From Anaerolineales bacterium (lineage in GTDB: Bacteria > Chloroflexota > Anaerolineae > CG2-30-64-16): 64,000 nucleotides of DNA. The DNA lies in the NCBI GenBank assembly GCA_017882045.1, contig JADGQF010000001.1, positions 16,288 through 80,287 on the forward strand, in the 5' to 3' direction. Below are positions 1-53,741 of the stretch, in pieces. The stretch's first letter is position 1. The number at the start of each line of letters is the position of its first letter. A model generated the notes under the pieces. The model made no database searches. It was not told the DNA's origin and saw only the letters and a program-made list of their open reading frames with translations. The position numbers and the translations under genes were made by a program.

Positions 1-138
1 CAGCTCTCGCCGGACTTTCAGGTCCGCGAGCTGACCCTCAAGCAGCCCTTCGTGGGCACTATCTCGTTGCGGCAAGCGGCCGAAATGGCGGTGATCCTCG
101 ACGGCGTGCAGAAGTCGTTGGGGTTCCTGGTAAAGTAG
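1..138 (+). CDS. C-terminal fragment of an unidentified protein (gene begins upstream of the window)
   Basis: Frame +1 is open from base 1 to TAG at 136-138 (...GTISLRQAAEMAVILDGVQKSLGFLVK*). Third codon positions are GC-rich like neighbouring genes. Too short to assign a family. The competing antisense ORF 18..596 has no recognisable motif. Confidence 0.35.
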   Translation, partial: QLSPDFQVRELTLKQPFVGTISLRQAAEMAVILDGVQKSLGFLVK

Positions 139-158
139 CCGGTTACGGAGTTGTGTTG

Positions 159-1439
159 ATGGCGGAAATGAGAGTTGAGATTGCGGGGCTGGAGTTCCCG
201 AACCCGATCCTGCCGGGAGCGGGCCCGCTGGTTGATAATGGCCTGAAACTGGCCGCGGTGGCCGCGGGCGGGGCCGGCGGACTGGTGACCCGTACGGTCA
301 CGGTGGCGCCGGCTACTGCACCGCCGCGGCATGCCGAAATACGGGGCGGCGTGCTCAACACGCCCCGCTGGTCGGAACTGCCGCTCAGCCAGTGGCTCGA
401 GATAGAATACCCGCGCGCCAGGGCGGCGGCAGATGCGGCCGGTATCCCGCTGATCGTCAGCATTGGCTACACGGCGGAAGAAGTCGCGTACCTGGCGCCG
501 CGCGTGGCGCCCTTCGCCGACGCCTTCGAGCTGAGCATGATGCACGGTGAACCCGGCCTGCTGACAGACCCGGTGACCGAGGGGGAGCTGGTTCACCGCC
601 AGCCGGTGAGCACCTGGACGCGCGGACCGTCACCGGTGCTGGATGCGATCCGGGCGATCAAACCGGCAACCGACAAACCGTTGATCGTGAAAGTCAATCC
701 GCTGGGCAGCAGCGAAATGGGCGCCCTGGCGCGCGAGATCGAGGCCGCCGGCGCGGATGCCATCACGGCTACAAACGCTTTCGGTCCCGTCACCGCGCTG
801 GACGTCGAGAGCGGGCGCTTCCTGCTTGACACGCCCGACGGTCACGCCTGGCTTTCGGGCGCGGCCCTGAAACCGCTGGCCCTACGCTGCGTGTTCGATA
901 TCGCGCGCTCCGTTTCTATCCCGGTCATCGGCGCCGGCGGAATCACGAAGACCGAAGATGCGGTTGAGTACTTGATGGCCGGGGCCAGCGCCGTGGAGAT
1001 CACGACCGGGGCGCTGAAGACCGGCGCAGCCTTCTACGGCCGGTTCGCCGGGCGCCTGAGCAACTGGCTGGATGCGCACGGCTACGCATCGGTGGCGGAG
1101 ATACAGGGGCTCGGCATCCGGCGCTGGGAATCGCTGCAGCCGCATCGCGACAGCGTCCCGGTGCTGTACGATATCGACGAATGTATCGGCTGCGAATTGT
1201 GCGAGCTGAGCTGCCACTACGACGCAATCTATATGGTGCCGGGCAAAAACAAGGTCGGCGGTGATCTCGTTGCCGAGTTCAACGCCGACCGCTGCTTTGG
1301 CTGCGGACTGTGCGTAGTGCGCTGCCCGACCGATGCACTGCTGATGCCAATGTTGCAGCGGGACGGGATTTACTTGCATCCCAAGACACTGCAGCCGGCA
1401 AAGCCGGGTAGCGGATCGATCGAGACGCCGACACGGTAG
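159..1439 (+). CDS. Dihydroorotate/dihydropyrimidine dehydrogenase (PreA)-like flavoprotein with C-terminal 2x[4Fe-4S] ferredoxin domain
   Basis: ATG at 159 lies 8 nt after ACGGAG. The N-terminus (A)EMRVEIAGLEFPNPILPGAGP is typical of class-1 DHOD/DPD TIM-barrel flavoproteins. The C-terminus has two CxxCxxCxxxCP motifs (CIGCELCELSCHYD and CFGCGLCVVRCPTD). Confidence 0.85.
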   Translation: MAEMRVEIAGLEFPNPILPGAGPLVDNGLKLAAVAAGGAGGLVTRTVTVAPATAPPRHAEIRGGVLNTPRWSELPLSQWLEIEYPRARAAADAAGIPLIVSIGYTAEEVAYLAPRVAPFADAFELSMMHGEPGLLTDPVTEGELVHRQPVSTWTRGPSPVLDAIRAIKPATDKPLIVKVNPLGSSEMGALAREIEAAGADAITATNAFGPVTALDVESGRFLLDTPDGHAWLSGAALKPLALRCVFDIARSVSIPVIGAGGITKTEDAVEYLMAGASAVEITTGALKTGAAFYGRFAGRLSNWLDAHGYASVAEIQGLGIRRWESLQPHRDSVPVLYDIDECIGCELCELSCHYDAIYMVPGKNKVGGDLVAEFNADRCFGCGLCVVRCPTDALLMPMLQRDGIYLHPKTLQPAKPGSGSIETPTR

Positions 1440-1505
1440 GAGCGACTGAAGGCGCTTCCTGGACGCGGGGCGACTGAACTCGCTACTACGAAGGTGAAGG
1501 CAGGT

Positions 1506-2267
1506 TCAGGCGATGCCCAGGACCATGATCATCTTGCCAGGGTCCCAGTCGACGATAACCTGGCCCTTAACGTTGAAAGTGGGCGTAGTTTCGAAGCCGT
1601 TGGCCCAACCCTTGACACGTTGGGCCGCGGCGCGGTCCTTGGAGATATCCACTTCAACGTAAGAGATGTGATGTTCCTTGAGGAAGGCGCGTGCCCGCAT
1701 GCAGCCTGGGCACCAGGGCGTGCAGTACATGACGACGTCCGCCTCGGGCTCAGGGGCTGTCACGACGGCCGGTTTTTCCACGACGGCTTGCGCGGCCGCG
1801 AGCTTGGGATCGAGCCTGGCAAGCTCCGCGAAGAGCACCTCATTGTCGGGCTGCTCGGCGATATTGTGGACGTCGACGTAGCGGATGATGCGCTGCTTAT
1901 CGATGACAAAGATCGCACGTTCGGAGTAGCCCTCAGTGCGGAACACACCATACATCTGGGCAACACGCCCGTGCGGGAAGAAATCGCTCAAGAGCGGGTA
2001 ATCGATCCCGCCCAAACTGTCGGTCCATGCCTTGAGGCAGTCCGTGCTGTCAACACTCAGACCCAGAACCTGGGTCTCCATCCCATCGAACCGGGCCAGC
2101 GCGGCCTGGTAGGAAGGGATCTGGTTCGTTCAAACGGGTGTCCAGGCCAGCGGGAAGAAGGCCATCACGACATTGCACCGGCCGCGGTAGTCGCTCAGGC
2201 GAACGGATTGCCCGCTATGGCTTTTGAGGATAAAATCAGGAGCGAGTTGTCCAACAGTTAAAGGCAT
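1506..2267 (-). CDS. Selenocysteine-containing AhpE-like peroxiredoxin fused to a CPGC glutaredoxin/NrdH-like domain (UGA at 2132-2130 read as Sec)
   Basis: ATG at 2267 has GGGAGGA 5 nt upstream. The first 45 aa, MPLTVGQLAPDF...FFPLAWTPV, end at TGA exactly at the peroxidatic Cys position. The same frame continues with 16 sense codons (TNQIPSYQAALARFDG) into ORF 1506..2081, which carries the Prx core (YPLLSDFFPHGRVAQMYGVF, RAIFVIDKQRIIRY), a linker and a CPGC thioredoxin-fold domain. The stitched product is 253 aa. Confidence 0.8.
2090..2110 (-). promoter_or_regulatory. Candidate bacterial SECIS stem-loop downstream of the peroxiredoxin UGA
   Basis: On the minus strand, +20 to +40 after UGA reads ACCAGGCC-GCGCU-GGCCCGGU. 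GGCC pairs with GGCC and CC with GG, leaving a 5-nt apical loop. An outer CGAACC/GGUUCG pairing (+2..+7 with +38..+43) is an alternative fold. Folded by eye only. Confidence 0.35.
2130..2132 (-). other. In-frame UGA, predicted Sec codon of the peroxiredoxin
   Basis: Plus-strand tca at 2130-2132 is TGA on the minus strand. It follows ...AWTPV and precedes TNQ..., replacing the Cys of the Prx PxxxTxxC motif. Confidence 0.75.
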
Positions 2268-2404
2268 ACCTATCCTCCCTGCGATCGAGAAGGTTACAAC
2301 AGGCGCTATGATACCATAAAACAACGCATGTGATAAAAGTTGAAGTAGGGGAATGACTGAAAGGATGGCCCGTTTTCCCCAGACGCCCTGAAAGGAGTGG
2401 TCCG

Positions 2405-2581
2405 ATGCAAGAACATGGCTGGTCCTGGCTGCGAGCGCTGGAGTCGGGTTCGCTGAGCCCACACCAACTGGAGTCTCTGCAAGCAATGGTGGATGCGGGT
2501 GAAGTCGAGAGCCTGGCCGATGCGGCCCGGCTGCTGGATCATGAGTTGGCAAAACGCGCGGATCACGAGCAGGACCTTTAG
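2405..2581 (+). CDS. Small hypothetical protein (58 aa) immediately upstream of the Mo-hydroxylase genes
   Basis: ATG at 2405 is preceded by AAAGGAGTGG (GGAG about 7 nt upstream) and the stop is TAG at 2579-2581. It encodes MQEHGWSWLRALESGSLSPHQLESLQAMVDAGEVESLADAARLLDHELAKRADHEQDL. It falls below the 60-aa cut-off of the ORF track, has codon third positions like neighbouring genes, and ends 18 nt before the next start. Confidence 0.4.
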   Translation: MQEHGWSWLRALESGSLSPHQLESLQAMVDAGEVESLADAARLLDHELAKRADHEQDL

Positions 2582-2599
2582 AGAAGGATATCTTTACCC

Positions 2600-4006
2600 A
2601 TGTGGCAAACTTACTATGCGCCGGCCAGCCTGGCGGAAGCGCTAGAGTTACTGGCCCGGCACGGCGATGCTTGCCGTATTGTGGCCGGCGGCACTGACCT
2701 GATCCTCGAGCTGGAGCGCGGCGTGCGCCGGCAAGAGATCATGGTGGATGTCTCGCGCATTGCGGGACTGGACAACCTGACGCTGCGCGCTGGCATCCTC
2801 TCGCTCGGCCCCTTGGTGACTCACAACCAGGTGGTCGCCTCGCCCGATGCGGTGGCGCGGGCTTTCCCGCTGGCCCGCGCTTGTTGGCTGGTCGGCGCGC
2901 CGCAGATCCGTAACCGGGGCACGGTCGCCGGCAACCTGGTGACCGCCAGCCCGGCCAACGATACCATCACCCCCCTCTGGGCGATGGATGCGACGCTGAC
3001 GCTCTCCAGCCGGAACCGGAGCAGCCGTACCCTGCCCTTCGACCAGTTTTTCCTGGGCGTGCGCCGCACCGCTCTCGCGCCGGACGAAATGGTCACGAGC
3101 ATCGACATGCCCGCGCTGGGCGCCAACGAACGTGGCACGTTCCTCAAGCTGGGCCTGCGCCAGGCGCAAGCCATCAGCGTTGTCAATGTCGCGGTGATTG
3201 TGGATTTCGGGCCGGGACCGGAGGCCAGGGTCGGACGGGCACGCATCGCGCTGGGCTCGGTTGCGCCGACCATCCTGCGCGCCGCCCAGGCCGAGGCCTA
3301 CCTGGCCGGCCAGAGACTGCGCGACGAGGTCATTGAAGGAGCGGCCGAACTGGCGGCTGCTGCTGCCCGGCCCATTTCCGATGTGCGGGCAGGCGCGGAC
3401 TACCGGCGCGATATGATTCGGGTCATGACCGCACGCGCGCTACGCCAACTCAGGGATGGCACGGAATGCGCCGGCTGGCCGGAAAGGCCCGTGCTGCTGT
3501 GGGGAGGGCGCAACCGGCTGCCGGCCGCATCTCCGGCTCTCCCGGCCTCGGGAGACATTGAGTTCACGCTCAACGGGCAACCGATCAGGCTGCGGGGCGT
3601 GCATGGCAAGACGTTGCTGCGCGCCCTCCGGGAGGACGCGGGATTGACGGGCACTAAAGAAGGCTGCGCCGAAGGCGAGTGCGGCGCCTGTACGGTCTGG
3701 CTGGATGGCAAGGCCGTGATGAGTTGCCTGGTGCCGGCCGAACGAGCTCAGGGCTGCCAGGTCGTGACCGTGGAGGGACTGGGCGGGGCCGGCGGCGAGC
3801 TACATCCCGTGCAGCAGGCCTTCATCGAGGCCGCGGCCGTGCAGTGCGGCTACTGCACGCCGGGCTTCCTGATGTCGGCGGCCAATCTCCTGGAGGAATT
3901 GCCGCATCCGACGCAGGATGAGATTCGCCAGGCCCTGACCGGCAACCTGTGTCGTTGTACCGGGTATTACAAAATCCTGGAAGCCGTGGAAAAGGCGGTC
4001 AGATGA
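2600..4006 (+). CDS. Xanthine dehydrogenase/CO dehydrogenase-family fused FAD-binding (CoxM/XdhB-like) and [2Fe-2S] (CoxS-like) subunit
   Basis: The N-terminal half has FAD-binding motifs (IVAGGTDLILELERG, RNRGTVAGNLVTASPANDT). The C-terminal 150 aa has both 2Fe-2S motifs (GCAEGECGACTV; QCGYCTPGF...CRCTGY). Confidence 0.9.
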   Translation: MWQTYYAPASLAEALELLARHGDACRIVAGGTDLILELERGVRRQEIMVDVSRIAGLDNLTLRAGILSLGPLVTHNQVVASPDAVARAFPLARACWLVGAPQIRNRGTVAGNLVTASPANDTITPLWAMDATLTLSSRNRSSRTLPFDQFFLGVRRTALAPDEMVTSIDMPALGANERGTFLKLGLRQAQAISVVNVAVIVDFGPGPEARVGRARIALGSVAPTILRAAQAEAYLAGQRLRDEVIEGAAELAAAAARPISDVRAGADYRRDMIRVMTARALRQLRDGTECAGWPERPVLLWGGRNRLPAASPALPASGDIEFTLNGQPIRLRGVHGKTLLRALREDAGLTGTKEGCAEGECGACTVWLDGKAVMSCLVPAERAQGCQVVTVEGLGGAGGELHPVQQAFIEAAAVQCGYCTPGFLMSAANLLEELPHPTQDEIRQALTGNLCRCTGYYKILEAVEKAVR

Positions 4007-6222
4007 AATACCAGATTGTGGGCGCGAACGCCCCACGCATCGATGCCCCGGCGAAGGTGACGGGCCAGGCGCTTTACTCGGGCGACATCGCCTACCCGGA
4101 CATGCTACACCTTGCCACACTGTTTGCCGGACGGCCCCACGCCCGCATCCTGGCCATCGATACCGCGGAGGCCGAGGCCGCGCCGGGCGTGATCGCAGTT
4201 TTCACGGCGCGTGATGTTCCGGTGAACGAACACGGCCTGCAAATGCAGGACCAGCCCGTCCTGTGCGGCCCCGGCTCGTCAAAAGAGGGCGCGGACGTGG
4301 TGCGTTTCGTGGGCGACCAGGTAGCGATTGTCGTGGCGGAGAGCGAAACGCAGGCCAGGGCCGCGCTTAAGCTGATCCGCATCGAATGGCAGGATCTGCC
4401 CCTGCTGCTGAATCCCGAAGAGGCCATGCAACCCGGCGCTTTCCGGTTGCATCCCCATGCGCCCGACAACATTACTTACACCTATCATATCCGCAAGGGC
4501 GATGCCGAAGCCGCCTTGCGCGCGGCGGATGTGATGGTGGAAGGGGTCTTTGAGACGCCAGTCCAGGAACACGCCTATCTCCAGCCCGAGGCAGGCGTGG
4601 CCTACATCGACGAGGCCGGGCGCATCACGGTTGAGGCCGCCGGACAGTGGACGCACGTCGATCGCGCGCAGATCGCGCACTCGCTGGGCCTGGCCGATGA
4701 AGAGGTGCGGGTGATTTACCCGGCCATCGGCGGCGCGTTCGGCGGGCGCGAGGACATTTCCGTGCAGATCACCCTGGCCCTGGCCGCCTGGCGCCTGGCG
4801 CAGCGCGGTATACGCCGGCCGATCAAGACCATCTGGAGCCGGGAAGAATCGATTATCGCCCATGGCAAGCGCCACGCGATGAAGCTGTGGGCGCGCTTCG
4901 GCGCCCGGCGCGATGGCAAGCTGGTCGCCGCGCAAGTGAAGGTCATCGCCGACGGCGGCGCGTATTGCTATACCAGCAACAAAGTGCTGGGCAACTGCAC
5001 GTTGACCTGCACCGGGCCGTACGAGATCCCGAACGCGAAGGTCGACACTTATGCCATCTACACGAATAATCTGCCCGGCGCGGCATTCCGCGGCTTTGGC
5101 GGCCCGCAGGGCCATTTCGCCGCCGAAAGCCTGATGGACCGGCTGGCCGAAGCGCTCAACATCGATCCCGTCGAATTGCGCCTGAAGAACATCCTGACCG
5201 GCGAGAGCCTGCTGACCACCGGCACGCCCATCCCCGGCGGCGTCGGCCTGACCGAGACCGTGATCGCCGCGGCCCGGGCGGCAGGCTGGACGCAGGACGA
5301 GGCTGGCCATTGGCACAAACCGCCGCTGGAGCGGGGCGATGGGGCGGTCCGGCGCGGCCTGGGGTTTGCCTGCGGCTTCAAGAACGTTGGCTTCAGCTAC
5401 GGCTATCAAGAGAACAGCTACGCGCGCGTCGAGCTGGAGGGCGCAGCGGCGCCCGAAAGAGCCGTCGTCTATTATGCCGGCGCAGACGTGGGCCAGGGAA
5501 ACCACACTGTGGTCGCGCAGATGGCCGCCGAGGTGCTGGGCATCCCATTCGACTGCGTGCAGGTGGTGGCCTCGGATACGGCGAAGATGGGTGACTCGGG
5601 TAGCGCCTCCGCTTCTCGCCTGACCTATATGTCGGGCAACGCGGTGCGCGGTGCAGCCGCGAAGGCGCTGGAGGCCTGGCAGAACGAAGACCGCCCGGCC
5701 GTCGGCGAGTTCGTCTACCTGGCGCCCAAGACCAGCCAGTTGGACCACGACACCGGCTTTGGCAAGCCCAACTTCGCTTACGGGTACGTCGCGCAGGCCG
5801 CCCAGCTCACTGTGGACACTGAGACCGGCGAGGTGCTGGTCGAGCGCTTCATCAGCGCCGACGACGTGGGTCAGGCGATCAACCCGCAGCAGGTGCAGGG
5901 CCAGATCGAAGGCGGCGCCGTGCAGGCGCTGGGCTACGCGCTGATGGAAAACTTCAAAACCGCGGGTGGCAGGGTGTTGACGGACAAGTTGAGCACCTAT
6001 CTCATCCCGACCATCCTCGACGTGCCCGCAAGGCTGGATTCGATCATCGTCGAGGTGCCGGATCCAAACGGCCCATGGGGCGCGCGCGGCATGTCAGAGA
6101 TGCCTTATCTGCCGGCTGCAGCCGTCGTGGCCAACGCGGTCCATGATGCAACCGGCGTGCGCTTCGACGATTTCCCTCTGACGGCTGAGCGCGTGTGGCG
6201 CGGGCTGCGGAAGCGAGACTGA
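4003..6222 (+). CDS. Xanthine dehydrogenase-family molybdopterin-binding large subunit
   Basis: ATG at 4003 overlaps the upstream stop (ATGA). The N-terminus MKYQIVGANAPRIDAPAKVTGQALYSGD and motifs GGAFGGRED and AFRGFGGPQ are typical of aldehyde oxidase/xanthine dehydrogenase Mo subunits. Confidence 0.9.
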   Translation: MKYQIVGANAPRIDAPAKVTGQALYSGDIAYPDMLHLATLFAGRPHARILAIDTAEAEAAPGVIAVFTARDVPVNEHGLQMQDQPVLCGPGSSKEGADVVRFVGDQVAIVVAESETQARAALKLIRIEWQDLPLLLNPEEAMQPGAFRLHPHAPDNITYTYHIRKGDAEAALRAADVMVEGVFETPVQEHAYLQPEAGVAYIDEAGRITVEAAGQWTHVDRAQIAHSLGLADEEVRVIYPAIGGAFGGREDISVQITLALAAWRLAQRGIRRPIKTIWSREESIIAHGKRHAMKLWARFGARRDGKLVAAQVKVIADGGAYCYTSNKVLGNCTLTCTGPYEIPNAKVDTYAIYTNNLPGAAFRGFGGPQGHFAAESLMDRLAEALNIDPVELRLKNILTGESLLTTGTPIPGGVGLTETVIAAARAAGWTQDEAGHWHKPPLERGDGAVRRGLGFACGFKNVGFSYGYQENSYARVELEGAAAPERAVVYYAGADVGQGNHTVVAQMAAEVLGIPFDCVQVVASDTAKMGDSGSASASRLTYMSGNAVRGAAAKALEAWQNEDRPAVGEFVYLAPKTSQLDHDTGFGKPNFAYGYVAQAAQLTVDTETGEVLVERFISADDVGQAINPQQVQGQIEGGAVQALGYALMENFKTAGGRVLTDKLSTYLIPTILDVPARLDSIIVEVPDPNGPWGARGMSEMPYLPAAAVVANAVHDATGVRFDDFPLTAERVWRGLRKRD

Positions 6223-6341
6223 CCGGCGGATGGGGATGTGCGTTACTGGCGCGACGACCAGCAGGTGCATCATGGACCGAAGCGGAACCTGGATGCAGTG
6301 ATCCTGGGAGAGCGAAAGAACGAGTAGATGGGGAGTCAACG

Positions 6342-6884
6342 GTGAGCGCGCCTGTTGTGATCCTGGACTATGACCCTCGCTGGCCGGCGCTGTACGAGGA
6401 AGAGAAGGGCCGTATCGTGGCGGCGATTGGCCCTGCCATCCTGGCAATCGAGCACGTAGGAAGCACAGCCGTGCCCGGTCTCGCCGCCAAGCCAGTCATT
6501 GATATCATGGTCGGCATCCAGACGCTAGACGAGGCGCCGGCTCTATACGATCCTCTGGCCGCTATCGGCTACGAATACGCCCCCGAGTTTGAGGAGCTGA
6601 TCCCCGAGCGGCGCTTTTTTCGTAAGGGGCCGGCGGAATTTCGGACGCATCACCTCCATGTCGTCGAATTCGGGGACGATTTCTGGGTGCGGCACCTGTT
6701 GTTCCGCGAATATCTGCGCCGGCATGCCGAGGCGGCACACAATTACGCGCAGTTGAAGCGCAAGTTAGCCGCGCAGTATGGCGGAAACCGCCAGGGCTAC
6801 ACTGAAGCCAAAACCGATTTCATTCGCGGCATAGAATTCCTGGCGCGGGCCGATGCAGAGCTGGCCGGAGAGCTGCCGGCGTAA
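6342..6884 (+). CDS. GrpB (UPF0157) family protein
   Basis: GTG at 6342 lies 6 nt after GGGGAG. Motifs are VVILDYDPRWPALYEEEKGRI and IEHVGSTAVPGLAAKPVIDIMV. The longer track ORF (from 6195) overlaps the upstream gene. Confidence 0.85.
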   Translation: MSAPVVILDYDPRWPALYEEEKGRIVAAIGPAILAIEHVGSTAVPGLAAKPVIDIMVGIQTLDEAPALYDPLAAIGYEYAPEFEELIPERRFFRKGPAEFRTHHLHVVEFGDDFWVRHLLFREYLRRHAEAAHNYAQLKRKLAAQYGGNRQGYTEAKTDFIRGIEFLARADAELAGELPA

Positions 6885-6927
6885 TGCCTGAAATCGACGT
6901 TCGCTTTAGGAGGATATACGCAATACA

Positions 6928-8559
6928 TTGATCACCAATGAGTTTGTTTTCGCTTCCCGGCGATCGCCGGTGCTTGGGCGACGGGGCATGGTCGGGGCGT
7001 CGCAACCGCTAGCGGTTGCGGCAGGGCTCGAAATCCTGGCCAGAGGGGGCAACGCGGCCGATGCGGCAGTCGCCACCGCCGCGGCCCTTAACGTGACCGA
7101 ACCGACGTCGACCGGGCTGGGCGGAGATTGTTTTGCCCTCTTTTACGACGGCGCCTCGCGACAGGTCAGCGCCCTGAACGGCTCGGGGCGCGCGCCGGCC
7201 GCGCTGACTCTCGAGCGCTTGCAGAAGGAGGGCTTCGGCGGCCGGTTGCCTCCCTATCATCCCTACACTGTCACGGTGCCGGGCGCCTGCGCCGGCTGGT
7301 GCGACATGGTCGGACAGCACGGGCGCCTGGCGCTGGAAACAATCCTGGCCCCTGCCATCCGGTTGGCCGAAGAGGGTTTCCCGGTCGCGCCACTCACCGC
7401 CTATGCCTGGGAGCGCGGCGCCGAGCGGCAGTTGCGCCATGCAGCGGGCGGCCAGGAATTGACCATTGAAGGCCGCGCCCCGCGCGCTGGGGAAATCTTC
7501 CGCAACCCCGGGCTGGCCCGCACGTTGCGAACGATCGCCGGGGGCGGCAAGGAAGCCTTCTACCGGGGTAAAATTGCCGCCGCGATCGCCGCAACGGTGC
7601 AGGCTGCCGGCGGCTGCCTGGCCGAAGCGGACCTGGCGGCTCACGCCAGCACCTGGGAACAGCCGGTCAGCACCACCTATCGCGGGCTGAGGGTGTGGGA
7701 GTGCCCGCCCAATGGGCAAGGACTGGCCGCGCTCTTGGGGCTGAACATCCTGGAAGGGTTCGACCTGTCTGCGCTGCCGCCGCTCTCGGCCGAACGGCTG
7801 CACCTGGAGATCGAGGCGATGCGGCTGGCCTTCGCGGATGCGCGCTGGTACGTGGCCGACCCAACGTTCAGTCCGGCCCCCCTGGCCGAATTGCTCTCCA
7901 AAGGCTATGCCGCCACCCGCCGCCGCCTCATCCAGCCGGGGCGCGCCAGCCTGGATCGACTGAGGGGAAGCCCGGTCGCCGGCTCTGATACGGTCTATTT
8001 CAGCGTGGTGGACGGCGAAGGCAACGCGTGCTCGTTCATCAACAGCAACTATATGGGCTTCGGCACGGGCATTGTGCCGCGCGGCTGGGGCTTCTCACTG
8101 CAAAACCGCGGCCACAACTTCAGCCTGGAGGCCGGTCATCCCAACTCCCTCGCGCCGCGTAAGCGGCCCTACCACACCATCATCCCGGCCCTTGCCACAC
8201 GCGAGCACGATGGCTCGCTGTTCGCCAGTTTCGGAGTGATGGGCGGCTTCATGCAACCGCAGGGGCACCTGCAGGTCGCGGTGGCGCTGGCCGACGATGC
8301 CCTGGACCCGCAGTCTGCCCTGGACCGCCCGCGCTTCTGTATCGACGAGGGAGAAGCAGGCGGCGCGGTGGCGTTAGAAGAGGGTATTTCCATGCCGGTT
8401 ATGGCCCGGCTGGCGGAGATGGGCCATCCGCTGCTGCCGGTGAGCGGACAGGGGCGGGCGCTCTTCGGGCGCGGCCAGATCATCCTGCGTGACGCCGAGA
8501 ACGGAGTTCTGTGGGGTGGAAGCGACCCGCGGGCCGACGGTTGCGTGATGAGCCTGTGA
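6928..8559 (+). CDS. ggt: Gamma-glutamyltranspeptidase family protein
   Basis: TTG start lies downstream of TAGGAGGA (6907-6914). Motifs are TSTGLGGDCFALFYDG, PYHTIIPA and GGSDPRADG. The exact start is uncertain. Confidence 0.88.
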   Translation: MITNEFVFASRRSPVLGRRGMVGASQPLAVAAGLEILARGGNAADAAVATAAALNVTEPTSTGLGGDCFALFYDGASRQVSALNGSGRAPAALTLERLQKEGFGGRLPPYHPYTVTVPGACAGWCDMVGQHGRLALETILAPAIRLAEEGFPVAPLTAYAWERGAERQLRHAAGGQELTIEGRAPRAGEIFRNPGLARTLRTIAGGGKEAFYRGKIAAAIAATVQAAGGCLAEADLAAHASTWEQPVSTTYRGLRVWECPPNGQGLAALLGLNILEGFDLSALPPLSAERLHLEIEAMRLAFADARWYVADPTFSPAPLAELLSKGYAATRRRLIQPGRASLDRLRGSPVAGSDTVYFSVVDGEGNACSFINSNYMGFGTGIVPRGWGFSLQNRGHNFSLEAGHPNSLAPRKRPYHTIIPALATREHDGSLFASFGVMGGFMQPQGHLQVAVALADDALDPQSALDRPRFCIDEGEAGGAVALEEGISMPVMARLAEMGHPLLPVSGQGRALFGRGQIILRDAENGVLWGGSDPRADGCVMSL

Positions 8560-8564
8560 CGAGC

Positions 8565-8600
8565 GGCGTGATGCGCGGTGTGATGCGCGGCGTGATACTC
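8565..8600. repeat. Three tandem 12-nt units (GGCGTGATGCGC / GGTGTGATGCGC / GGCGTGATACTC) in the ggt-rsm intergenic spacer
   Basis: Read directly from the sequence. A further GCGTGATG copy is at 8543-8550 inside the ggt 3' end. Confidence 0.7.
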
Positions 8601-8601
8601 G

Positions 8602-10008
8602 ATGAGTGAGCAATCTCGCCCGCTGATCCCCCAGGCGTTTCTCGCACGCATGGAGCGCTGGCTGGGCGACGAGTACCCGGCTTTTCTCGCGAGTTACGAC
8701 CAACCGGCCACGAACGGACTGCGCGCCAACACCCTCAAGATTGCCCCCGAAGCGCTCCGGGAACGCCTGCCCTTCGCGTTGGAGACGCTGACCTGGCCTC
8801 CGGCAGCCTTCCGCGTATCCGAGGAGGAGCAGCCTGGGCGGCACCCCTATCACGCTGCCGGGCTATACTACCTCCAGGATCCTTCGGCCATGAGCGTAGC
8901 CGCGTTGCTGGCGCCTCAGCCGGGCGAACGGGTGCTCGACCTGGCAGCCGCTCCGGGCGGCAAGGCCACCCACCTCGCATCGTTGCTGGCGAACCAGGGG
9001 CTGCTGGTGGCCAATGAGATCCACCCGCGCCGGGTCTGGGACCTGGCCGAGAACCTCGAACGCTGGGGGGCGCGCAACGCGGCCATCACCGCCGAGACTC
9101 CCGAGCGCCTGGCCGAGCGTTTTCCGGACTTCTTTGACCGGGTGCTGCTTGACGCCCCCTGCAGCGGCGAGGGCATGTTTCGCAAGAGCGATGCGGCACG
9201 GCGCGAATGGGCCGCAGAACTGGTGCTGGGCTGCGCCAACCGTCAGACGGGTATTCTGGACGCGGCCGCGCGCATGCTGCGCCCAGGGGGCCTGCTGGCC
9301 TACTCCACCTGCACCTTTGCAGCCGAAGAGGATGAGGGCACGGTGGCTCGCTTCCTGGAAACTCATGCGGATTTCGAGCCGGTCGAACCGGCCAGGCAAG
9401 CGGGCTTCGCACCCGGACGCCCTGAGTGGCTGGGGAACGAGAAAGTTGGCGAGGCGGCCCGCGACGGCCTGGGGCGGGCGGTGCGCCTGTGGCCGCACAC
9501 CGGCCCGGGCGAGGGCCATTTCATTGCCTTGCTGCGCCGCTGCGAGCGGGAGGCGCACGAGGATCTACCAGGGTGGCGCTTGCCGAAGCTGCCCGTCGAA
9601 GCCACCCGCTTTTACGAGACCTTTTGCCGGGAGCATTTGCAGCGCGCGCCGGCCACAGAACGCCTGGCGCTGGCCGGCTCGTACCTGTACCAGGTTCCCG
9701 CCGGTCTGCCCGATCTCAGCGGTCTGCGTTTTATCCATCCCGGCTGGTGGCTCGGAACGCTGAAGAAGGGACGCTTCGAGCCCAGCCAGGGGCTGGCAAT
9801 GGGCTTGAGCCCGGCCGATGTGAGGCGGGTCGCCAACCTGGACTCCGCCGCTCCCCAGGTGCTGACCTATTTGCGCGGGGAGAGCCTCCCCAACGCCGGC
9901 GCGGACGGTTGGGTCCTGGTGACCGTGGATGGCTTTCCTCTGGGCTGGGGCAAGCGGGTGCAAGGGACATTGAAGAGCCACTATCCACGCGGGCTGAGAA
10001 GAGTGTGA
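8602..10008 (+). CDS. RsmB/RsmF (NOL1/NOP2/Sun) family rRNA cytosine-C5 methyltransferase
   Basis: Motifs are YYLQDPSAMSVAALL, LDLAAAPGGKATHLA, DAPCSGEGMFRK and YSTCTF. Confidence 0.85.
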   Translation: MSEQSRPLIPQAFLARMERWLGDEYPAFLASYDQPATNGLRANTLKIAPEALRERLPFALETLTWPPAAFRVSEEEQPGRHPYHAAGLYYLQDPSAMSVAALLAPQPGERVLDLAAAPGGKATHLASLLANQGLLVANEIHPRRVWDLAENLERWGARNAAITAETPERLAERFPDFFDRVLLDAPCSGEGMFRKSDAARREWAAELVLGCANRQTGILDAAARMLRPGGLLAYSTCTFAAEEDEGTVARFLETHADFEPVEPARQAGFAPGRPEWLGNEKVGEAARDGLGRAVRLWPHTGPGEGHFIALLRRCEREAHEDLPGWRLPKLPVEATRFYETFCREHLQRAPATERLALAGSYLYQVPAGLPDLSGLRFIHPGWWLGTLKKGRFEPSQGLAMGLSPADVRRVANLDSAAPQVLTYLRGESLPNAGADGWVLVTVDGFPLGWGKRVQGTLKSHYPRGLRRV

Positions 10009-10823
10009 TGATGTCTTCTTTTGATGACGTGCTGGTGTTGATCAAGGGCGCCGGCGACCTGGCCAGCGGGGTTGCGGCGCGTCTTTATCGCAGCGGCTTT
10101 CCGGTCGCAATGACCGAACTGGCGCAGCCGTTGATGGTCAGGCGCACGGTCGCCTTCGGCGAGGCAGTCTACGAGGGGGAATTTGCCGTCGAGGGAATTG
10201 TGGCCCGCCGGGTTAGCTCGCCGGACGAGGCGCGCCGCGCGCTTGCCGAGGGTAAGATTCCGGTGGCGGTGGACCCCGAGGCCAGCCTGCGCCTGGCATT
10301 GAAACCGGCCGTGGTGGTGGATGCCATCATGGCGAAACGCAACACGGGAACGCGGCCCGCGGACGCGCCGTTAGTGGTGGGGCTTGGTCCCGGCTTTAGA
10401 GCCGGGCAGGACTGTCACGCAGTGGTGGAGACAAACCGCGGACACTGGCTGGGCCGGGTGATCTGGGATGGGGAGGCGGAGCCAGACACCGGCATCCCCG
10501 GTGAAGTGGCCGGGCAACGCGGTAGGCGCATGTTGCACGCCCCTGCCGATGGCATCCTTGAAGCCCACGCGGCCATCGGAGACATGGTCAAGGCCGATCA
10601 GGTGCTGGCGACAGTCTCCGGAACGGAAGTGCGGGCCGGGCTTGACGGCGTTCTGCGCGGGCTGATCCACAGCGGGCTGGTCGTCTCAGCCGGGCTTAAG
10701 ATCGGCGACGTTGACCCGCGCGCCGAGCGCGCCCATTGCTTCAGCATCTCGGATAAGTCGCTGGCCGTGGGTGGCGGGGTACTCGAGGCCATCCTGGCCG
10801 GGAAACCGCCGGCTGCGGGTTGA
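10008..10823 (+). CDS. yqeB: Selenium-dependent molybdenum hydroxylase accessory protein, YqeB (EF2563) family
   Basis: ATG at 10008 overlaps the rsm stop (GTGATGATG). The N-terminus MMSSFDDVLVLIKGAGDLASGVAARLYRSGFPVAMTELAQPLMVRRTVAFGEAVYEG matches my memory of short YqeB-family proteins. The long track ORF from 9426 is an out-of-context extension over the rsm gene. Confidence 0.78.
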   Translation: MMSSFDDVLVLIKGAGDLASGVAARLYRSGFPVAMTELAQPLMVRRTVAFGEAVYEGEFAVEGIVARRVSSPDEARRALAEGKIPVAVDPEASLRLALKPAVVVDAIMAKRNTGTRPADAPLVVGLGPGFRAGQDCHAVVETNRGHWLGRVIWDGEAEPDTGIPGEVAGQRGRRMLHAPADGILEAHAAIGDMVKADQVLATVSGTEVRAGLDGVLRGLIHSGLVVSAGLKIGDVDPRAERAHCFSISDKSLAVGGGVLEAILAGKPPAAG

Positions 10824-10854
10824 GCCGCCTGTGCCTCTAAAAGGGGAGCTGCAA

Positions 10855-12303
10855 GTGCTCATCTCTCAAGCCCTACGAATACAGACCCAAGACATCGTCA
10901 CCATCGTCGGTGGCGGCGGCAAGACGACGCTCATGTTCCGATTGGCCGAGGAGTTGGCCGGTTCCGGGCGGCACGTGGTCACTACTATGACCACGCGTAT
11001 TTTTGCCAGCCAGATGCAGCGGGCGCCGGCCTTCCTGGTCCTGCACGATGAGCAGACCCTGCTGGCCCAGTTGCCGCAGGCGTTGGACACATATGGCCAC
11101 GTACTGGTCGCGGGGAACATTCAGGTTGAGATAGACAAAGTAGCCGGCATCCCGTCGGCCCTGGCCGAGCGCATCGCGGCCCTGCCTGGGGTGGACGCTT
11201 TGATTATCGAAGCGGATGGCTCACGGCGTCTGCCGTTCAAGGCCCCGGCCGCGCACGAACCGGTCGTCCCGCCGAGCACGACCATCCTGATACCCGTCGT
11301 GGGCATCGACGTGTTGGGACAGGCGCTGGACGCGGGACACGTCCACCGGCCGCAGATCGTCGCCGAACTTGCCGGCGCGACCTTGGGCCAACCGGTGACC
11401 CCGGAGATAGTCGCGGCGGTGATCGCCCATCCGGCAGGCGGCGCCAAGGATCTGCCCCCGGGCGCGCGGCTGGTGCCTTTCCTGAACAAGGTGGAAAGCG
11501 AAGAGACACTGAACGCGGCACGCACGCTCGCACGCCTCCTGCTCGCCTACGAGCCGGTCGACAGCGTGATCATCGGCGCCGCAGAGGCCGCAGATCCGGT
11601 GAGCGAGGTCTGGAGCCGTATCGGGGCGGTGGTCCTGGCGGCCGGAGGGGCCAGCCGGTACGGAGAGCTGAAACAACTATTGCCGTGGGGCGATGTGCCG
11701 TTGGTGGCGCACGTAACCCGGCAGGCGCTGGCCTGCCCAGACGTGACGCGCGTGGCAGTGACCCTGGGCGCCGGAGCCGACGGGGTGCACGCGGCGCTGA
11801 CCGGCGCGGCGCTGACCGGCGCGGACGTGTTACAGGCGCCGGTCCCGGATTGGGAAGCCGGCCAGAGTCGCAGCGTCCGCGCCGGGCTAGACGCCCTGCG
11901 GCGCGACAGTGCGCCGCTCGGTGGCGTCCTATTCCTCCTGGCCGATCAGCCGGGCGTCTCAACCGCCTTGCTGGCTGCCCTGATCCGCCGCCATCGGGAG
12001 ACGCTCGCCCCCATCGTCGCGCCCCGCTACCAGGGGCAGCGCGGCAACCCCGTGCTTTTCGACCGCGCCACTTTCGCGGAGTTTGCGCGACTGGAAGGCG
12101 ACATCGGCGCCCGGCCCATCCTGCAGGCGTACGCCGGGCAAATCGCCTGGCTGGACTGGCCAACAGCAGAGATCATCGAAGACATCGACACGCCCGCCGA
12201 TTATGCCCACCACTCGGCCGGCCGCGCTGCCCGGCCAGGCCACCCCGCAGGCGCCGATCAGGAGCACGGGCTGAGCGACAGGAGCGAGGAGAGGGATGGC
12301 TGA
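10855..12303 (+). CDS. Fusion of YqeC-family selenium-dependent hydroxylase accessory protein with MocA/MobA-like molybdenum cofactor nucleotidyltransferase
   Basis: GTG at 10855 lies 6 nt after AAGGGGAG. The N-terminal half has IVTIVGGGGKTTLMFRLAEEL...VVTTMTTRIF (YqeC P-loop signature). The C-terminal half has GAVVLAAGGASRYGELKQLLPW, LLADQP and RGNPVLF (NTP_transf_3 / MocA signature). Confidence 0.8.
   Translation: MLISQALRIQTQDIVTIVGGGGKTTLMFRLAEELAGSGRHVVTTMTTRIFASQMQRAPAFLVLHDEQTLLAQLPQALDTYGHVLVAGNIQVEIDKVAGIPSALAERIAALPGVDALIIEADGSRRLPFKAPAAHEPVVPPSTTILIPVVGIDVLGQALDAGHVHRPQIVAELAGATLGQPVTPEIVAAVIAHPAGGAKDLPPGARLVPFLNKVESEETLNAARTLARLLLAYEPVDSVIIGAAEAADPVSEVWSRIGAVVLAAGGASRYGELKQLLPWGDVPLVAHVTRQALACPDVTRVAVTLGAGADGVHAALTGAALTGADVLQAPVPDWEAGQSRSVRAGLDALRRDSAPLGGVLFLLADQPGVSTALLAALIRRHRETLAPIVAPRYQGQRGNPVLFDRATFAEFARLEGDIGARPILQAYAGQIAWLDWPTAEIIEDIDTPADYAHHSAGRAARPGHPAGADQEHGLSDRSEERDG
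11791..11820 (+). repeat. Perfect in-frame 15-nt tandem duplication (GCGGCGCTGACCGGC x2) inside the MocA-like domain
   Basis: Read directly from the sequence. It encodes AALTG-AALTG. Confidence 0.85.
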
Positions 12304-13057
12304 CGCCGACCCGGAGGTGAGCTTCGCCGCGGTCTACGATGTGGTTCACGAAAGCGCGCCCGATTTTCTGCGCGCCCAACTGGCCTTCCTGCAGGACCGG
12401 CTGGGCCCGCGCCGCGCACTGTTGGATGCGGGGTGCGGAACGGGGAGACACCTTCTGGCCCTCTCCCGAGCCGGCTATACGGTAACGGGTCTGGATGCAA
12501 GCCGGGCCATGCTGGCTCTCGCACGCGCGAAGCTTGCCGGGCAGAGTCTGCCTGCCCACCTGGTACGCGGGCTACTTCAATCGCTGCCCTTCAGTCCAGG
12601 TTCGTTTGACGGCGCGTTGTGCCTGGAGTCGCCGCTGGCGTATTTGTTTAGCGAGGAGGAGTTGGCGCGCGCCCTGGCCGGATTGCGCCGCGTTCTTCGC
12701 CCCGGCGGCCTCCTGCTGATCGACGTGTTCGACTACCCGGGAACGTTCGGCAAGGGTGGCACAAGGCCGCAAAAGACGCATTTTGACGCCCCGTGGGGCC
12801 GGTTAGAGGTTACGGAAACCCATCGCCACCGGCCCGGTACGGGCGCCTGGTGCATGACCCAAACCTTTGCCGCCCGGCGGGCAGATGAAGTCGAGCGCTT
12901 CAGCGTCGAACACCGGTTGCGGGTTCGTTCAGCAAATGACTATGCCGCCGCGTTGGAGCGCGCCGGCTTCATCATCCGGGAGCTATTGCCTGCCTATCCC
13001 GGCTCGCCGTCGGAGCTACGTTCAGAGGCGCGCATGATCTTCTTGGCCTCGGGCTGA
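12296..13057 (+). CDS. Class I SAM-dependent methyltransferase
   Basis: Motif I is LLDAGCGTGRHLLAL, followed by VTGLDAS. The start overlaps the yqeC-mocA stop by 8 nt. Confidence 0.8.
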   Translation: MADADPEVSFAAVYDVVHESAPDFLRAQLAFLQDRLGPRRALLDAGCGTGRHLLALSRAGYTVTGLDASRAMLALARAKLAGQSLPAHLVRGLLQSLPFSPGSFDGALCLESPLAYLFSEEELARALAGLRRVLRPGGLLLIDVFDYPGTFGKGGTRPQKTHFDAPWGRLEVTETHRHRPGTGAWCMTQTFAARRADEVERFSVEHRLRVRSANDYAAALERAGFIIRELLPAYPGSPSELRSEARMIFLASG

Positions 13058-13776
13058 GGCCGTAAGGCTACGAGCGCGATGAGGATGGCCGCCAGTCCCA
13101 ATAGCTGGAGCGTGCGCAGACCCGCCACAAGCGTCGCGCTGGATTCCCGGAAGGGCTCGATCAACCACAGGCTGACGCCATAGCCGAGCAGCGCCGACCA
13201 GGCGGCCCGACCGGGGCGACGCTGGCGCCGCTGGCGGCGCAGAACGAGCAGGACCACCCCAAAGGCCGCCAAAAGCGCGACGATCTGGTAAAGCTGGACG
13301 GGATGCCGGCGCACGCCCCATTCGGCAATCGCCCAGGGCAATCCCGCCGGCGCGCCCGGTTCCAGCCCGGCCAACCACGCCCCGAGCTGTGCGATCGCCA
13401 TCCCCAGCAGGCCACCCGGCGCCGCCGCATCCAGCACCGTGGCGAGGGGCAACCGATGCCGGTACACATAGTACCCGCTGACTGCCAACCCGGCGAGCGC
13501 CCCCGGCCAGGGTAAGAACGCGCGTGCATTCAGTCCGATGATCGACAATGGCTCGAGCCGGTACGCCGGCCAGAAGGCAATCAGGTGCGCCAGGCGCCCG
13601 ACTACGAGTCCGGCTGCCAGCCCGCTCAGACCCGCGTTGTAGATGTGATCCCCTTCGATTCCCAGCCTCGTCGCAAGGCGTGCCCCGGTCGCCAGGGCCG
13701 CCCAACCGGCCAGCAGCAGCGCCAGGGGATAGGTCTGCACGGCCAGGGGACCAATCTGCAGGACGGGAAGCATCAT
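12994..13776 (-). CDS. lgt: Prolipoprotein diacylglyceryl transferase
   Basis: Multi-pass membrane protein with RRHPVQLYQIVALL and the overall Lgt pattern. Its 3' end overlaps the convergent methyltransferase by 64 nt. Confidence 0.88.
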   Translation of the reverse strand: MMLPVLQIGPLAVQTYPLALLLAGWAALATGARLATRLGIEGDHIYNAGLSGLAAGLVVGRLAHLIAFWPAYRLEPLSIIGLNARAFLPWPGALAGLAVSGYYVYRHRLPLATVLDAAAPGGLLGMAIAQLGAWLAGLEPGAPAGLPWAIAEWGVRRHPVQLYQIVALLAAFGVVLLVLRRQRRQRRPGRAAWSALLGYGVSLWLIEPFRESSATLVAGLRTLQLLGLAAILIALVALRPQPEAKKIMRASERSSDGEPG

Positions 13777-15102: not shown

Positions 15103-18117
<3,015 letters not shown>

Positions 18118-18119
18118 GC

Positions 18120-18980
18120 TCACCTGTAGACCGCGGCGGCCAGGTAGCCCACAGTATAGCTGCCCGGGTTCCTGTCGCCGGTAACATCCCCGGACGCTGC
18201 ATAGGCCAGCACCTGTGCGCCGCGCGCCCCGGCTTTCCGGGCCGCCTCGAGGACGGCCACCAGGCCGGTCGCACCGCAAGCCTGCACCTGTTCGGTCCGC
18301 AAAGCAGCCGTTAGCCCGTCTACGTCAAAGGCAGCAACCAGGTCGGCCAGGCGGCGATCGGTGCGCACGACGGCCTGATAGTCGTTCAGGTGGCTAAGAT
18401 CCGTGCTGGCAACAAACAAAGTCTGCTCATCGCTCAACGCTGCCAGCCCATCCGCCAGCGCATGCACTCGGGTCAGGGCGCCAGGTTCGGCGATATGTTC
18501 GCCAAGCATGATGGGAACCAGGCTGAAGCTGCCCAGCGCTACCTGCAAAAAGGGCAATTCGATCTCCAAGGCATGCTCTTTGTCACCCTGCACTGGCGTG
18601 AGGGGGACGCTACCGGCCAGCCGGGCGATGAACTCACGGTCCACCGGCAGGGTTCCCAGGGGAGTGCGGTAGGCCGTTTCGGTCGGAACCATGAACGGAC
18701 CCAGCCGGCTGCCCCAGATCGGCCGGTGCAAAGGGCCGAGCAGCACCACGCGCCGGTAGTCTGCCCCACGCACCTGGACAAAAGCGCGCGCCGCCGTCGG
18801 GCCGGAGAAAGTGTAACCCGCATGTGGGCTGACCAGGGCAATCACTCGACCGGGCAACGTCAGCGGCTCGACCTGAGCCATATAATCTTCCACCGCACGC
18901 CGCAGCGCCGGCTCGCTGCCGGGATACCAAGCTCCTGCCACCGCCGGCGGCCGGACCACCACATCTCGCGTTGCTGGCAT
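18120..18980 (-). CDS. MEMO1 family protein (AmmeMemoRadiSam system protein B-like)
   Basis: ATG at 18980 has GGAGGTG upstream. Motifs are PPAVAGAWYPG and VSPHAGYTFSGPTAA. Confidence 0.82.
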   Translation of the reverse strand: MPATRDVVVRPPAVAGAWYPGSEPALRRAVEDYMAQVEPLTLPGRVIALVSPHAGYTFSGPTAARAFVQVRGADYRRVVLLGPLHRPIWGSRLGPFMVPTETAYRTPLGTLPVDREFIARLAGSVPLTPVQGDKEHALEIELPFLQVALGSFSLVPIMLGEHIAEPGALTRVHALADGLAALSDEQTLFVASTDLSHLNDYQAVVRTDRRLADLVAAFDVDGLTAALRTEQVQACGATGLVAVLEAARKAGARGAQVLAYAASGDVTGDRNPGSYTVGYLAAAVYR

Positions 18981-42572: not shown

Positions 42573-42823
42573 GACCTGGGCAGAGTATAACCCCGAACGA
42601 GCCTATCGTCGGAGTCCAATCGGCTTTTTGTCTCGGGCGTTGGGCTTGTTGAGACGCCCTATTCAGCGGAATGGCAACAAAGGGGGTGATGCCTCAGCCA
42701 GAAGGTGAACTAGCGATACCAGGCGTATCGGGTCGTGATCAGCCGGCGCATTGATATTGCCCTCAATGCCAGGCCGGCCGCCGTGTCAGCCATCAACCTC
42801 AGATTAGTAGTTCGGAGGAGAAA

Positions 42824-44761: not shown

Positions 44762-44783
44762 CACGGTTTTGGCCGGCACATAC

Positions 44784-44876
44784 GATCTGTCGCCCGGCTT
44801 ACGCCGAGCGACAGATCCTCACACGGTTTTTGACCACTGGGCGGGCATCTCCTTCAGCAGGAAGCGCCCGCCCAGT
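44784..44876 (+). other. Two strong intercistronic hairpins between the binding-protein and permease genes
   Basis: GATCTGTCGC/GCGACAGATC (44784-44817) and ACTGGGCGGGC/GCCCGCCCAGT (44836-44876). Each is preceded by a copy of ACACGGTTTT(T)G(G/A)CC (44761, 44821). Confidence 0.55.
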
Positions 44877-44905
44877 TTATACCTGACGCGAGCGGATAGC
44901 CCCTT

Positions 44906-46126: not shown

Positions 46127-46140
46127 CCTGGAGCGTATTC

Positions 46141-48364: not shown

Positions 48365-48365
48365 G

Positions 48366-49400: not shown

Positions 49401-49418
49401 CGCCAGACCCAAGGTAGC

Positions 49419-53723: not shown

Positions 53724-53741
53724 GCCAGCCGCGTGCTAAGC

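Follow-up and report, generated by a model that had tools for sequence, protein, structure and literature searches.

Introduction

Of the three biological uses of selenium, its insertion on the molybdenum cofactor is the one least understood. The accessory proteins YqeB, YqeC and YgfJ were defined as markers of the selenium-dependent molybdenum hydroxylase (SDMH) trait and are found only in selD-positive genomes, and YqeB is often fused to XdhC-like domains, for example in Haloarcula (Haft & Self 2008, PMC2276186). Deletion of yqeB in C. difficile has the same effect as a selD mutation on growth with xanthine and urate, and loss of yqeC causes no obvious phenotype; according to Johnstone and Self, the mechanism of neither protein is known (PMC11448449). 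Here we describe a 64-kb stretch of DNA (hereafter the window; ~64% G + C) from contig JADGQF010000001.1 of an uncultured Anaerolineae (Chloroflexota) bacterium of peat, permafrost and soil, in which a two-gene molybdenum hydroxylase shares its neighborhood with yqeB, a yqeC-mocA fusion gene and selD. The locus probably represents a genuine selenium-cofactor trait with an SDMH.

A reductive route from uric acid through 2,8-dioxopurine was described in 2025 as a gut-microbiome trait. In this route XdhD/DOPDH reduces urate to 2,8-dioxopurine, YgfK dearomatizes it and SsnA opens the ring (10.1101/2025.05.19.654654; 10.1101/2025.04.24.650524). The C. sporogenes DOPDH and XDH enzymes require SelD, and YqeBC plus SelD are present in all cluster-bearing strains (10.1101/2025.04.24.650524). 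For Chloroflexota, Li et al. stated that SsnA neighborhoods hold no YgfK or UacX and an F420-type reductase instead (10.1101/2025.05.19.654654).

Like the 23-gene SDMH region of E. coli (ygeW-xdhD), the locus described here has the accessory markers co-localized with XDH-family subunits, ygfK and ssnA. It differs in that its YqeB is short and has no N-terminal XdhC module, in that YqeC is fused to a MocA-like domain, whereas E. coli has separate, divergently transcribed genes, and in its host, which is a free-living peat and soil member of the Chloroflexota and not a gut or purinolytic Bacillota or an enterobacterium. The signature itself is already known, and related proteins are annotated at NCBI as selenium cofactor proteins. 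What is new is a distinct Chloroflexota enzyme family tied to yqeB, the presence of ygfK and ssnA in a peat and soil bacterium, a lineage-wide YqeC-MocA fusion and the observation that XdhC accompanies YqeB. The locus extends the current picture and does not change it. It does suggest that the reductive uric acid/2,8-dioxopurine route reaches free-living peat and soil Chloroflexota, and there it would be of importance for recycling purine nitrogen under anaerobic conditions.

A Chloroflexota hydroxylase family is linked to yqeB at the operon level

Gene families were judged by the curated NCBIfam cut-offs, in bits, together with Pfam scans. A sequence-only reading of the window had proposed a two-gene hydroxylase with FAD, 2x[2Fe-2S] and Mo modules at 2600–6222, a YqeB protein encoded at 10008, a YqeC domain encoded at 10855 and a nearby selD. 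Pfam found all of the hydroxylase modules, and the YqeB, YqeC and SelD families were each confirmed well above their cut-offs, the last after read-through of an in-frame UGA (Table 1).

A scan of GTDB genomes with a YqeB profile yielded 80 yqeB loci (designated below, with other related loci, by L numbers), the best of which encodes a YqeB 67% identical to that of the window. Fourteen of the 80 encode a Mo subunit that shares 50% identity or more with the window protein, always upstream of yqeB and on the same strand, and in nine of these 14, all from Chloroflexota genomes, the Mo gene (55–61% identity) stops just 2–45 nt before yqeB. The yqeC and mocA genes then follow yqeB in seven of the nine. 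These data link the enzyme family to the selenium markers at the operon level.

The arrangement in the window is looser. Four closer relatives (L014, L009, L015 and L016, with Mo subunits 73–81% identical) keep the order ygfK…FAD-FeS, Mo…GGT, rsmF, (yqeB), yqeC-mocA, and yqeB stands at that place only in L014. Since the entire neighborhood, including lgt, ahpC and priA, is syntenic among them, gene order in these close relatives is weak evidence. The GrpB, GGT and RsmF genes were considered as parts of the system and rejected; their order is kept in close relatives, but they are absent from the compact Mo-yqeB-yqeC-mocA operons. In three of the close relatives rsmF is followed by yqeC-mocA with no intervening yqeB (L009 19592–19660, L015 19577–19625 and L016 18601–18625), so that either yqeB lies elsewhere in these genomes or YqeC-MocA has been retained without it.

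Table 1 Features of the window that bear on the selenium-cofactor locus
Feature	Position	Strand	Description
ygfK, 3' end	1–138	+	2,8-dioxopurine reductase homolog; remainder upstream of the window, on contig L010
PreA/UacX-like flavoprotein	159–1439	+	DHO_dh (FMN) domain and 2x[4Fe-4S] domain; Pfam DHO_dh, Fer4
Peroxiredoxin-glutaredoxin fusion	1506–2267	-	Candidate selenoprotein; in-frame UGA at 2130–2132, at the peroxidatic Cys position
Conserved small open reading frame	2405–2581	+	58 aa; 18 nt upstream of the FAD-FeS gene; no NCBIfam match
FAD + 2x[2Fe-2S] fused subunit	2600–4006	+	468 aa; FAD module first, Fe-S second
Molybdopterin-binding catalytic subunit	4003–6222	+	739 aa; XDH/aldehyde oxidase family; Pfam Ald_Xan_dh_C, MoCoBD_1, MoCoBD_2
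yqeB	10008–10823	+	Short form without XdhC module; TIGR03309 367.5 bits, cut-off 220
yqeC-mocA fusion gene	10855–12303	+	Starts 31 nt after yqeB
YqeC domain	10855–11589	+	P-loop; TIGR03172 182.9 bits, cut-off 73.05; Pfam YqeC 136.8 bits
MocA/YgfJ-like cytidylyltransferase domain	11614–12303	+	C-terminal; Pfam NTP_transf_3 (MobA-like) 103 bits
S-adenosylmethionine-dependent methyltransferase gene	12296–13057	+	Pfam Methyltransf_25, Methyltransf_11; 8-nt overlap with the yqeC-mocA stop
selD	32264–33313	+	Selenophosphate synthetase, itself a selenoprotein; in-frame UGA at 32315–32317; TIGR00476 377 bits, cut-off 125, after read-through

Architecture and active site of the hydroxylase

The first enzyme gene encodes FAD_binding_5 (residues 5–172), CO_deh_flav_C (183–283), Fer2 (322–384) and Fer2_2 (390–464) domains. 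Compared with the E. coli subunits, the FAD part shares 29% identity with XdhB and the Fe-S part 50% with XdhC, in E. coli the name of the Fe-S subunit. The gene overlaps the Mo gene by 4 nt. Homologs of the Mo subunit at 65–81% identity all came from Anaerolineae/Chloroflexi metagenome-assembled genomes. Its best NCBIfam match was pucD (552.9 bits, cut-off 783.65); scores against the XdhA models were 454.9 for NF043082 (cut-off 780) and 446.8 for PRK09970 (cut-off 916), that against the Se_dep_XDH model TIGR03311, whose fused Fe-S/Mo architecture was also not matched, was 453.3 (cut-off 830.45), and that against the XdhD-type model TIGR03313 was 303.8 (cut-off 1101.9). Thus, the highest scores, all under cut-offs, point to B. 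subtilis PucCDE and E. coli XdhABC, enzymes matured by XdhC/PucA. The window enzyme has their three-module FAD/Fe-S/Mo make-up, and XdhB and XdhC are the best matches of its FAD and Fe-S parts. It departs from them in having no XdhC/PucA-type gene nearby, in the linkage to yqeB seen in its relatives and in one active site position, the bovine Arg880 site described below.

The Mo subunit is 29.5% identical to E. coli XdhA and equally so to XdhD. The enzyme resembles E. coli XdhD-YgfM and C. sporogenes DOPDH (XdhAC) in lying beside ygfK and ssnA and in the order of its domains on the DNA, FAD, Fe-S and then Mo. However, its Fe-S domain is attached to the FAD subunit, whereas that of XdhD forms the N-terminus of the Mo subunit, and judged by sequence the Mo enzyme is not an XdhD/DOPDH ortholog.

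Residue numbers of bovine xanthine oxidoreductase were placed on the Mo-subunit alignment provisionally and not with an alignment tool; with the correspondence that we take to hold, the Glu of the motif GGAFGGRE aligns with bovine Glu802 (Leu in nicotinate dehydrogenase, Gln in E. coli XdhA and XdhD), the catalytic Glu equivalent to E1261 lies in GMSEMP, an Asn stands at the Arg880 site, a Phe is retained at the Phe1009 position, where DOPDH has Val, and a Ser occupies the Ala1078 position, where Thr or Ser is reported for DOPDH. The Asn lies inside the segment GNCTLT..CTGP, which resembles 'GNHSLTVPCNGP' of E. coli XdhD, so that the pattern GN(x)(S/T)LT...C(x)GP is common to the two enzymes at this site.

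Among solved structures, 4-hydroxybenzoyl-CoA reductase gave the top score with the Mo subunit (315 bits). The best-scoring relative per aligned residue was the nicotinate dehydrogenase of E. barkeri (3HRD), the one structurally proven Mo=Se enzyme, with 282 bits over 423 residues of chain A and 141 bits for chain B. The ndhFSLM genes of that enzyme are also ordered FAD, Fe-S, Mo. In contrast to the single polypeptide of the window, however, its Mo subunit is split into L and M chains, its active site motif is GGGFGGKL and its genomic context is one of nicotinate fermentation genes, where the window enzyme has ygfK and ssnA.

Related loci show two further features of the enzyme genes. The small open reading frame (ORF) upstream of the FAD-FeS gene has homologs at the same position in L014 (8237–8419), L009 (7941–8144) and L015 (8191–8376); the four products, of 58–67 aa, have the motif WSWxRALxxGxLxxxQxESLxAxVD in common and match no family. 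Such a protein could serve the hydroxylase as a small subunit or in its assembly. In addition, in one branch of the family ~2.2–3 kb of DNA stand between the FAD-FeS and Mo genes in L007 (6932–9959) and in L048, L058, L069 and L071 (~5600–7800), whereas the window has no insert. The L007 insert contains three ORFs, of 480, 238 and 170 aa, with no firm Pfam match.

The enzyme genes adjoin ygfK and ssnA

The window opens within ygfK, the rest of which was found on an ENA contig, L010. This 68-kb contig is 99.57% identical to the window across 16.2 kb and extends 6 kb upstream of its start. The L010 YgfK (1089 aa, the last 138 nt of its gene being the first 138 of the window) scored 972 bits against TIGR03315 Se_ygfK (cut-off 835), and the SsnA encoded on the same contig scored 558 bits against NF005540/TIGR03314 (cut-off 444); they share 41% and 38% identity, respectively, with their E. 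coli counterparts. The gene order leading up to the window is alpha/beta hydrolase, SsnA, a 98-aa ORF, a DHO_dh-only protein and YgfK, after which comes the PreA-like gene, whose product scored 149.6 bits against the PreA model NF006183, under its cut-off of 335. The sequence-only reading had called the substrate of the hydroxylase unknown, which now appears too pessimistic, as ssnA and ygfK directly upstream place the enzyme in a 2,8-dioxopurine context. Its suggestion that the PreA-like gene hinted at purine/pyrimidine-type heterocycles pointed the right way.

Both ygfK and ssnA lie beside the enzyme genes in L010, L009, L015 and L016, and ygfK does so in L014. Thus, unlike the statement of Li et al., five Anaerolineae loci carry YgfK next to ssnA or DHO_dh genes. 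In the relatives, ygfK-ssnA-[FAD-FeS]-[Mo] is collinear with ygfK-ssnA-ygfM-xdhD of E. coli, with the gene boundary falling on the other side of the Fe-S domain. In L007 a Bmp-family ABC transporter adjoins the enzyme genes, and the Bmp family is linked to nucleoside uptake. Riboswitches for the molybdenum cofactor (Moco), purines or xanthine, which might have revealed the substrate, were searched for, and none was found in window positions 1–13500 or in five related loci.

DHO_dh paralogs flank ygfK on both sides, one without the 2x[4Fe-4S] domain (L010 1931–2842) and one with it (window 159–1439); they are 46% identical. The architecture of the latter is that described for C. difficile UacX, which replaces YgfK in that organism, and both types coexist here.

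YqeB and the YqeC-MocA fusion

The start of yqeB overlaps the rsmF stop. The YqeB protein matches TIGR03309 over its full length (1–254 of 256) and is 54% identical to residues 270–524 of E. coli YqeB. In its AlphaFold (AF2) model (pLDDT 92, pTM 0.89) the N-terminal domain is Rossmann-like, its glycine loop reading GAGD, and a C-terminal beta domain follows. The beta domain superposes on barrel-sandwich domains of the biotinyl/lipoyl type (root mean square deviation of 1.4 Å over 64 residues for BesA), and Foldseek also matched it to the barrel-sandwich domains of pyruvate carboxylase BCCP and AstE-type proteins and the N-domain to Rossmann enzymes; no global fold match was found among solved structures, with TM at most 0.3. 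The barrel-sandwich match agrees with the resemblance to AccB noted by Johnstone and Self (PMC11448449). Invariant residues of YqeB include Cys244, His137, His146, Lys110, Lys231 and Arg45-Arg46. We infer that YqeB may carry selenium or the cofactor on the barrel-sandwich module.

The YqeC Walker A motif, GGGGKT, is invariant in 48 homologs, and the fusion of YqeC to a MocA-like domain was present in all 120 of the 120 best homologs. The MocA-like domain scored 130 bits against the YgfJ/MocA model TIGR03310, under its cut-off of 186.45, and its fold matched MocA-related Rv0371c, SSO Q97W15 and MobA in Foldseek (TM 0.75–0.90, target-normalized). Fold searches with the fusion model were dominated by this domain, and YqeC compared with the PDB gave only P-loop-level likeness to FtsY/MinD-type NTPases. 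Fusion to a MocA-like domain is an argument that YqeC works together with the cytidylyltransferase, either in synthesis of the cytosine dinucleotide cofactor or in its hand-over, and a role at that step would be in keeping with the mild effect of deleting yqeC in C. difficile. The fusion is thus a "Rosetta stone" that connects YqeC with the making of this cofactor.

The arrangement recalls MobA-MobB, in which a MobA-fold nucleotidyltransferase likewise has a small P-loop protein as partner; just as yqeC can be deleted in C. difficile with no obvious phenotype, E. coli can dispense with mobB. The likeness of YqeC to MobB, however, spans just 23 residues at the P-loop, with an hhalign probability of 28%, and does not show homology, and the transferase of the window is MocA-like (CTP) and not MobA (GTP).

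The methyltransferase gene that overlaps the end of yqeC-mocA possibly belongs to the same operon. Its product has the DVU_1556-family methyltransferase model as best NCBIfam match, below threshold, and the MocA domain shows a weak match to the DVU_1551-family NTP transferase. Judging from accession numbers and names, these two models appear to form a set with those for a Mo aldehyde oxidoreductase and its XdhC-related maturation factor.

XdhC-like proteins accompany YqeB

In the window, Pfam found no XdhC_CoxI or XdhC_C domain in any plausible gene, and when 36 XdhC-like proteins encoded at other yqeB loci served as tblastn queries, neither the window nor seven related loci gave a match. The absence of xdhC noted in the sequence-only reading is therefore real for this stretch. 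Its use as part of the signature of the trait, however, did not survive comparison with other genomes. In 36 of the 80 loci an XdhC-like gene is found no farther than 10 kb from yqeB, and in 12 the distance is at most 300 nt; Pfam confirmed XdhC_CoxI and XdhC_C in four of those near yqeB. In L029, L048, L058, L069, L071 and L073 the order is XdhC, FAD-FeS, ~2.2 kb, Mo (window-like), YqeB, YqeC, MocA, and in the YqeB of E. coli an XdhC-like module and a YqeB module are fused. As XdhC-like genes occur near YqeB, in operon with it or fused to it, absence of XdhC is no hallmark of the trait, and XdhC-like proteins appear to be partners of YqeB and not its alternative. By the same token an xdhC gene beside another copy of the enzyme, which the earlier reading would have counted against selenium, is seen in yqeB operons of relatives and is not diagnostic. 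What stands of that reading is that YqeB, YqeC and SelD mark the trait and that the XDH-family enzyme is the likely client. The window organism either encodes XdhC elsewhere or does without it. The N-domain of the window YqeB showed no significant match to the XdhC module of E. coli YqeB (E = 0.074, 33 columns).

SelD and a candidate second selenoprotein gene

The selD product, read through its UGA, matches TIGR00476 across the residues around that codon and scores 358 bits against NF002098; the sequence CAG-U-ASK replaces the Cys17 motif. The stem-loop that follows this UGA does not exceed shuffled sequence in stability (z = -0.6). The peroxiredoxin-glutaredoxin gene interrupts the cluster on the opposite strand, between the PreA-like and hydroxylase genes. 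Its read-through product has TPV(U)T at the peroxidatic position and matches both peroxiredoxin and glutaredoxin families, and a hairpin begins 8 nt past the UGA (z = -2.25). The homolog in L014 was called as two split ORFs. Because both genes carry an in-frame UGA, the organism decodes selenocysteine, as had been proposed from the sequence for the genes at 1506 and 32264.

Selenium dependence and substrate of the hydroxylase

The conserved gene content and order and the family membership of YqeB, YqeC, SelD, YgfK and SsnA make a selenium-cofactor trait the probable interpretation of the locus, and several observations weigh against it. The Mo subunit reaches no NCBIfam equivalog cut-off, and alignment shows that it lacks the XdhD insertion that bears Glu606. 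In the window 3.8 kb, with the GrpB, GGT and RsmF genes, separate the enzyme from yqeB, and L009, L015 and L016 keep yqeC-mocA with no yqeB within 10 kb. In the related loci only ~10 kb on either side was visible, and in the visible window-type loci tblastn with E. coli queries found no HyuA, YgeW/YqeA or UacY, YgeY or YgeX, the exceptions being a carbamate-kinase fragment at the L015 edge and weak YgeX matches to pyridoxal phosphate-enzyme genes in L015; the genes for these later steps may lie elsewhere. A separate XdhD-like gene, with Fe-S and Mo parts fused and 36% identity to E. coli XdhD, is present in L029 (1195–4167) and L073 (18–1712), just upstream of XdhC and the window-like enzyme, so that two Mo hydroxylases share a single yqeB cluster. 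Finally, no sequence feature separates selenium- from sulfur-dependent enzymes, and no active site residue accounts for the use of one or the other (10.1101/2025.04.24.650524).

The hydroxylase at 2600–6222 might be an ordinary sulfur-dependent enzyme, with YqeB and YqeC serving a Mo enzyme elsewhere, such as an XdhD-like urate reductase, and their proximity reflecting inherited gene order. The unrelated genes that part enzyme and yqeB, the synteny that extends to lgt, ahpC and priA, the three relatives without yqeB between rsmF and yqeC-mocA and the XdhD-like genes in other Chloroflexota yqeB loci (L029, L032, L042, L049 and L073) all fit this explanation. We nevertheless consider it unlikely, as the Mo gene abuts yqeB on the same strand in the nine more distant genomes, which is operon linkage and not inherited synteny, and neither the 70 kb around the enzyme nor the seven related loci yielded an XdhC. 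The enzyme could also act, with its neighbors, on an N-heterocycle or aromatic acid other than a purine (nicotinate or a pyridine- or pyrimidine-type ring), following the logic of nicotinate fermentation, with hydroxylase, ring reductase and amidohydrolase. Its nearest solved structures are 4-hydroxybenzoyl-CoA reductase and nicotinate dehydrogenase and include no xanthine dehydrogenase, an Asn stands at the presumed site of bovine Arg880, which is needed for xanthine turnover, two extra DHO_dh-type reductases flank ygfK, and the later purine-pathway genes were not seen in the visible loci. However, YgfK and SsnA exceed their equivalog cut-offs and resemble E. coli enzymes that act on 2,8-dioxopurine (10.1101/2025.05.19.654654), the Glu at the presumed Glu802 site is typical of purine oxidizers, and a Bmp-family transporter, of the family linked to nucleoside uptake, stands beside the enzyme in L007. 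A non-purine substrate is therefore very unlikely in our estimate.

Within purine breakdown two steps come into question. Collinearity with E. coli ygfK-ssnA-ygfM-xdhD favors a DOPDH-like step interconverting urate and 2,8-dioxopurine, which we hold to be a good possibility, if one somewhat short of even. The coexistence of a true XdhD-like gene with the window-like family in L029 and L073 favors a separate role and suggests that the family is perhaps not the urate reducer; conversion of xanthine to urate as a feeder step is a candidate, and we regard it as possible but doubtful. A more far-reaching proposal would make the enzyme a non-orthologous, selenium-dependent replacement of XdhD/DOPDH, or a single enzyme that takes xanthine through urate to 2,8-dioxopurine, with YqeB working alone without XdhC and YqeC acting at cytidylylation or hand-over and not in selenium chemistry. 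As a whole this proposal has a low probability.

For the selenium-dependent hydroxylase that we favor, the gene families suggest the following sequence of steps. The MocA-like domain would turn Mo-molybdopterin into the cytosine dinucleotide form, aided in cytidylylation or in cofactor hand-over by the P-loop domain of YqeC, much as MobB accompanies MobA. SelD would supply selenophosphate, and YqeB would place the selenium on the molybdenum as a labile terminal ligand that replaces sulfur. The completed enzyme would then serve anaerobic purine breakdown beside YgfK, for dearomatization of 2,8-dioxopurine, and SsnA, for ring hydrolysis. The natural variants described here, YqeB with and without XdhC and YqeC-MocA with and without an adjacent yqeB, could guide experiments on these steps.

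Distribution of the locus and other contents of the window

DNA of the window type is present in peat, permafrost and soil metagenomes. Contig L010 differs from the window at 70 positions in 16.2 kb, and contigs from other metagenomes also differ within window positions 1–13200, at sites that look mostly synonymous; the population is microdiverse. Four sequencing runs returned by an RNA query, their type being undefined, covered genes and spacers evenly and were uninformative on transcription, and a promoter and terminator scan gave nothing usefully above shuffled background.

Positions 1–13100 form a succession of plus-strand genes, and the remainder of the window contains housekeeping genes and two Opp/Dpp-type ABC transporter operons. 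The latter stand consecutively on the plus strand (42755–57757), with three family-5 solute-binding protein genes in total. The priA gene (15103–18279, minus strand) encodes an unusually long protein of 1058 aa, in which ~310 residues between the 3'-DNA-binding domain (97–186) and the helicase core (from ~498) match no family.

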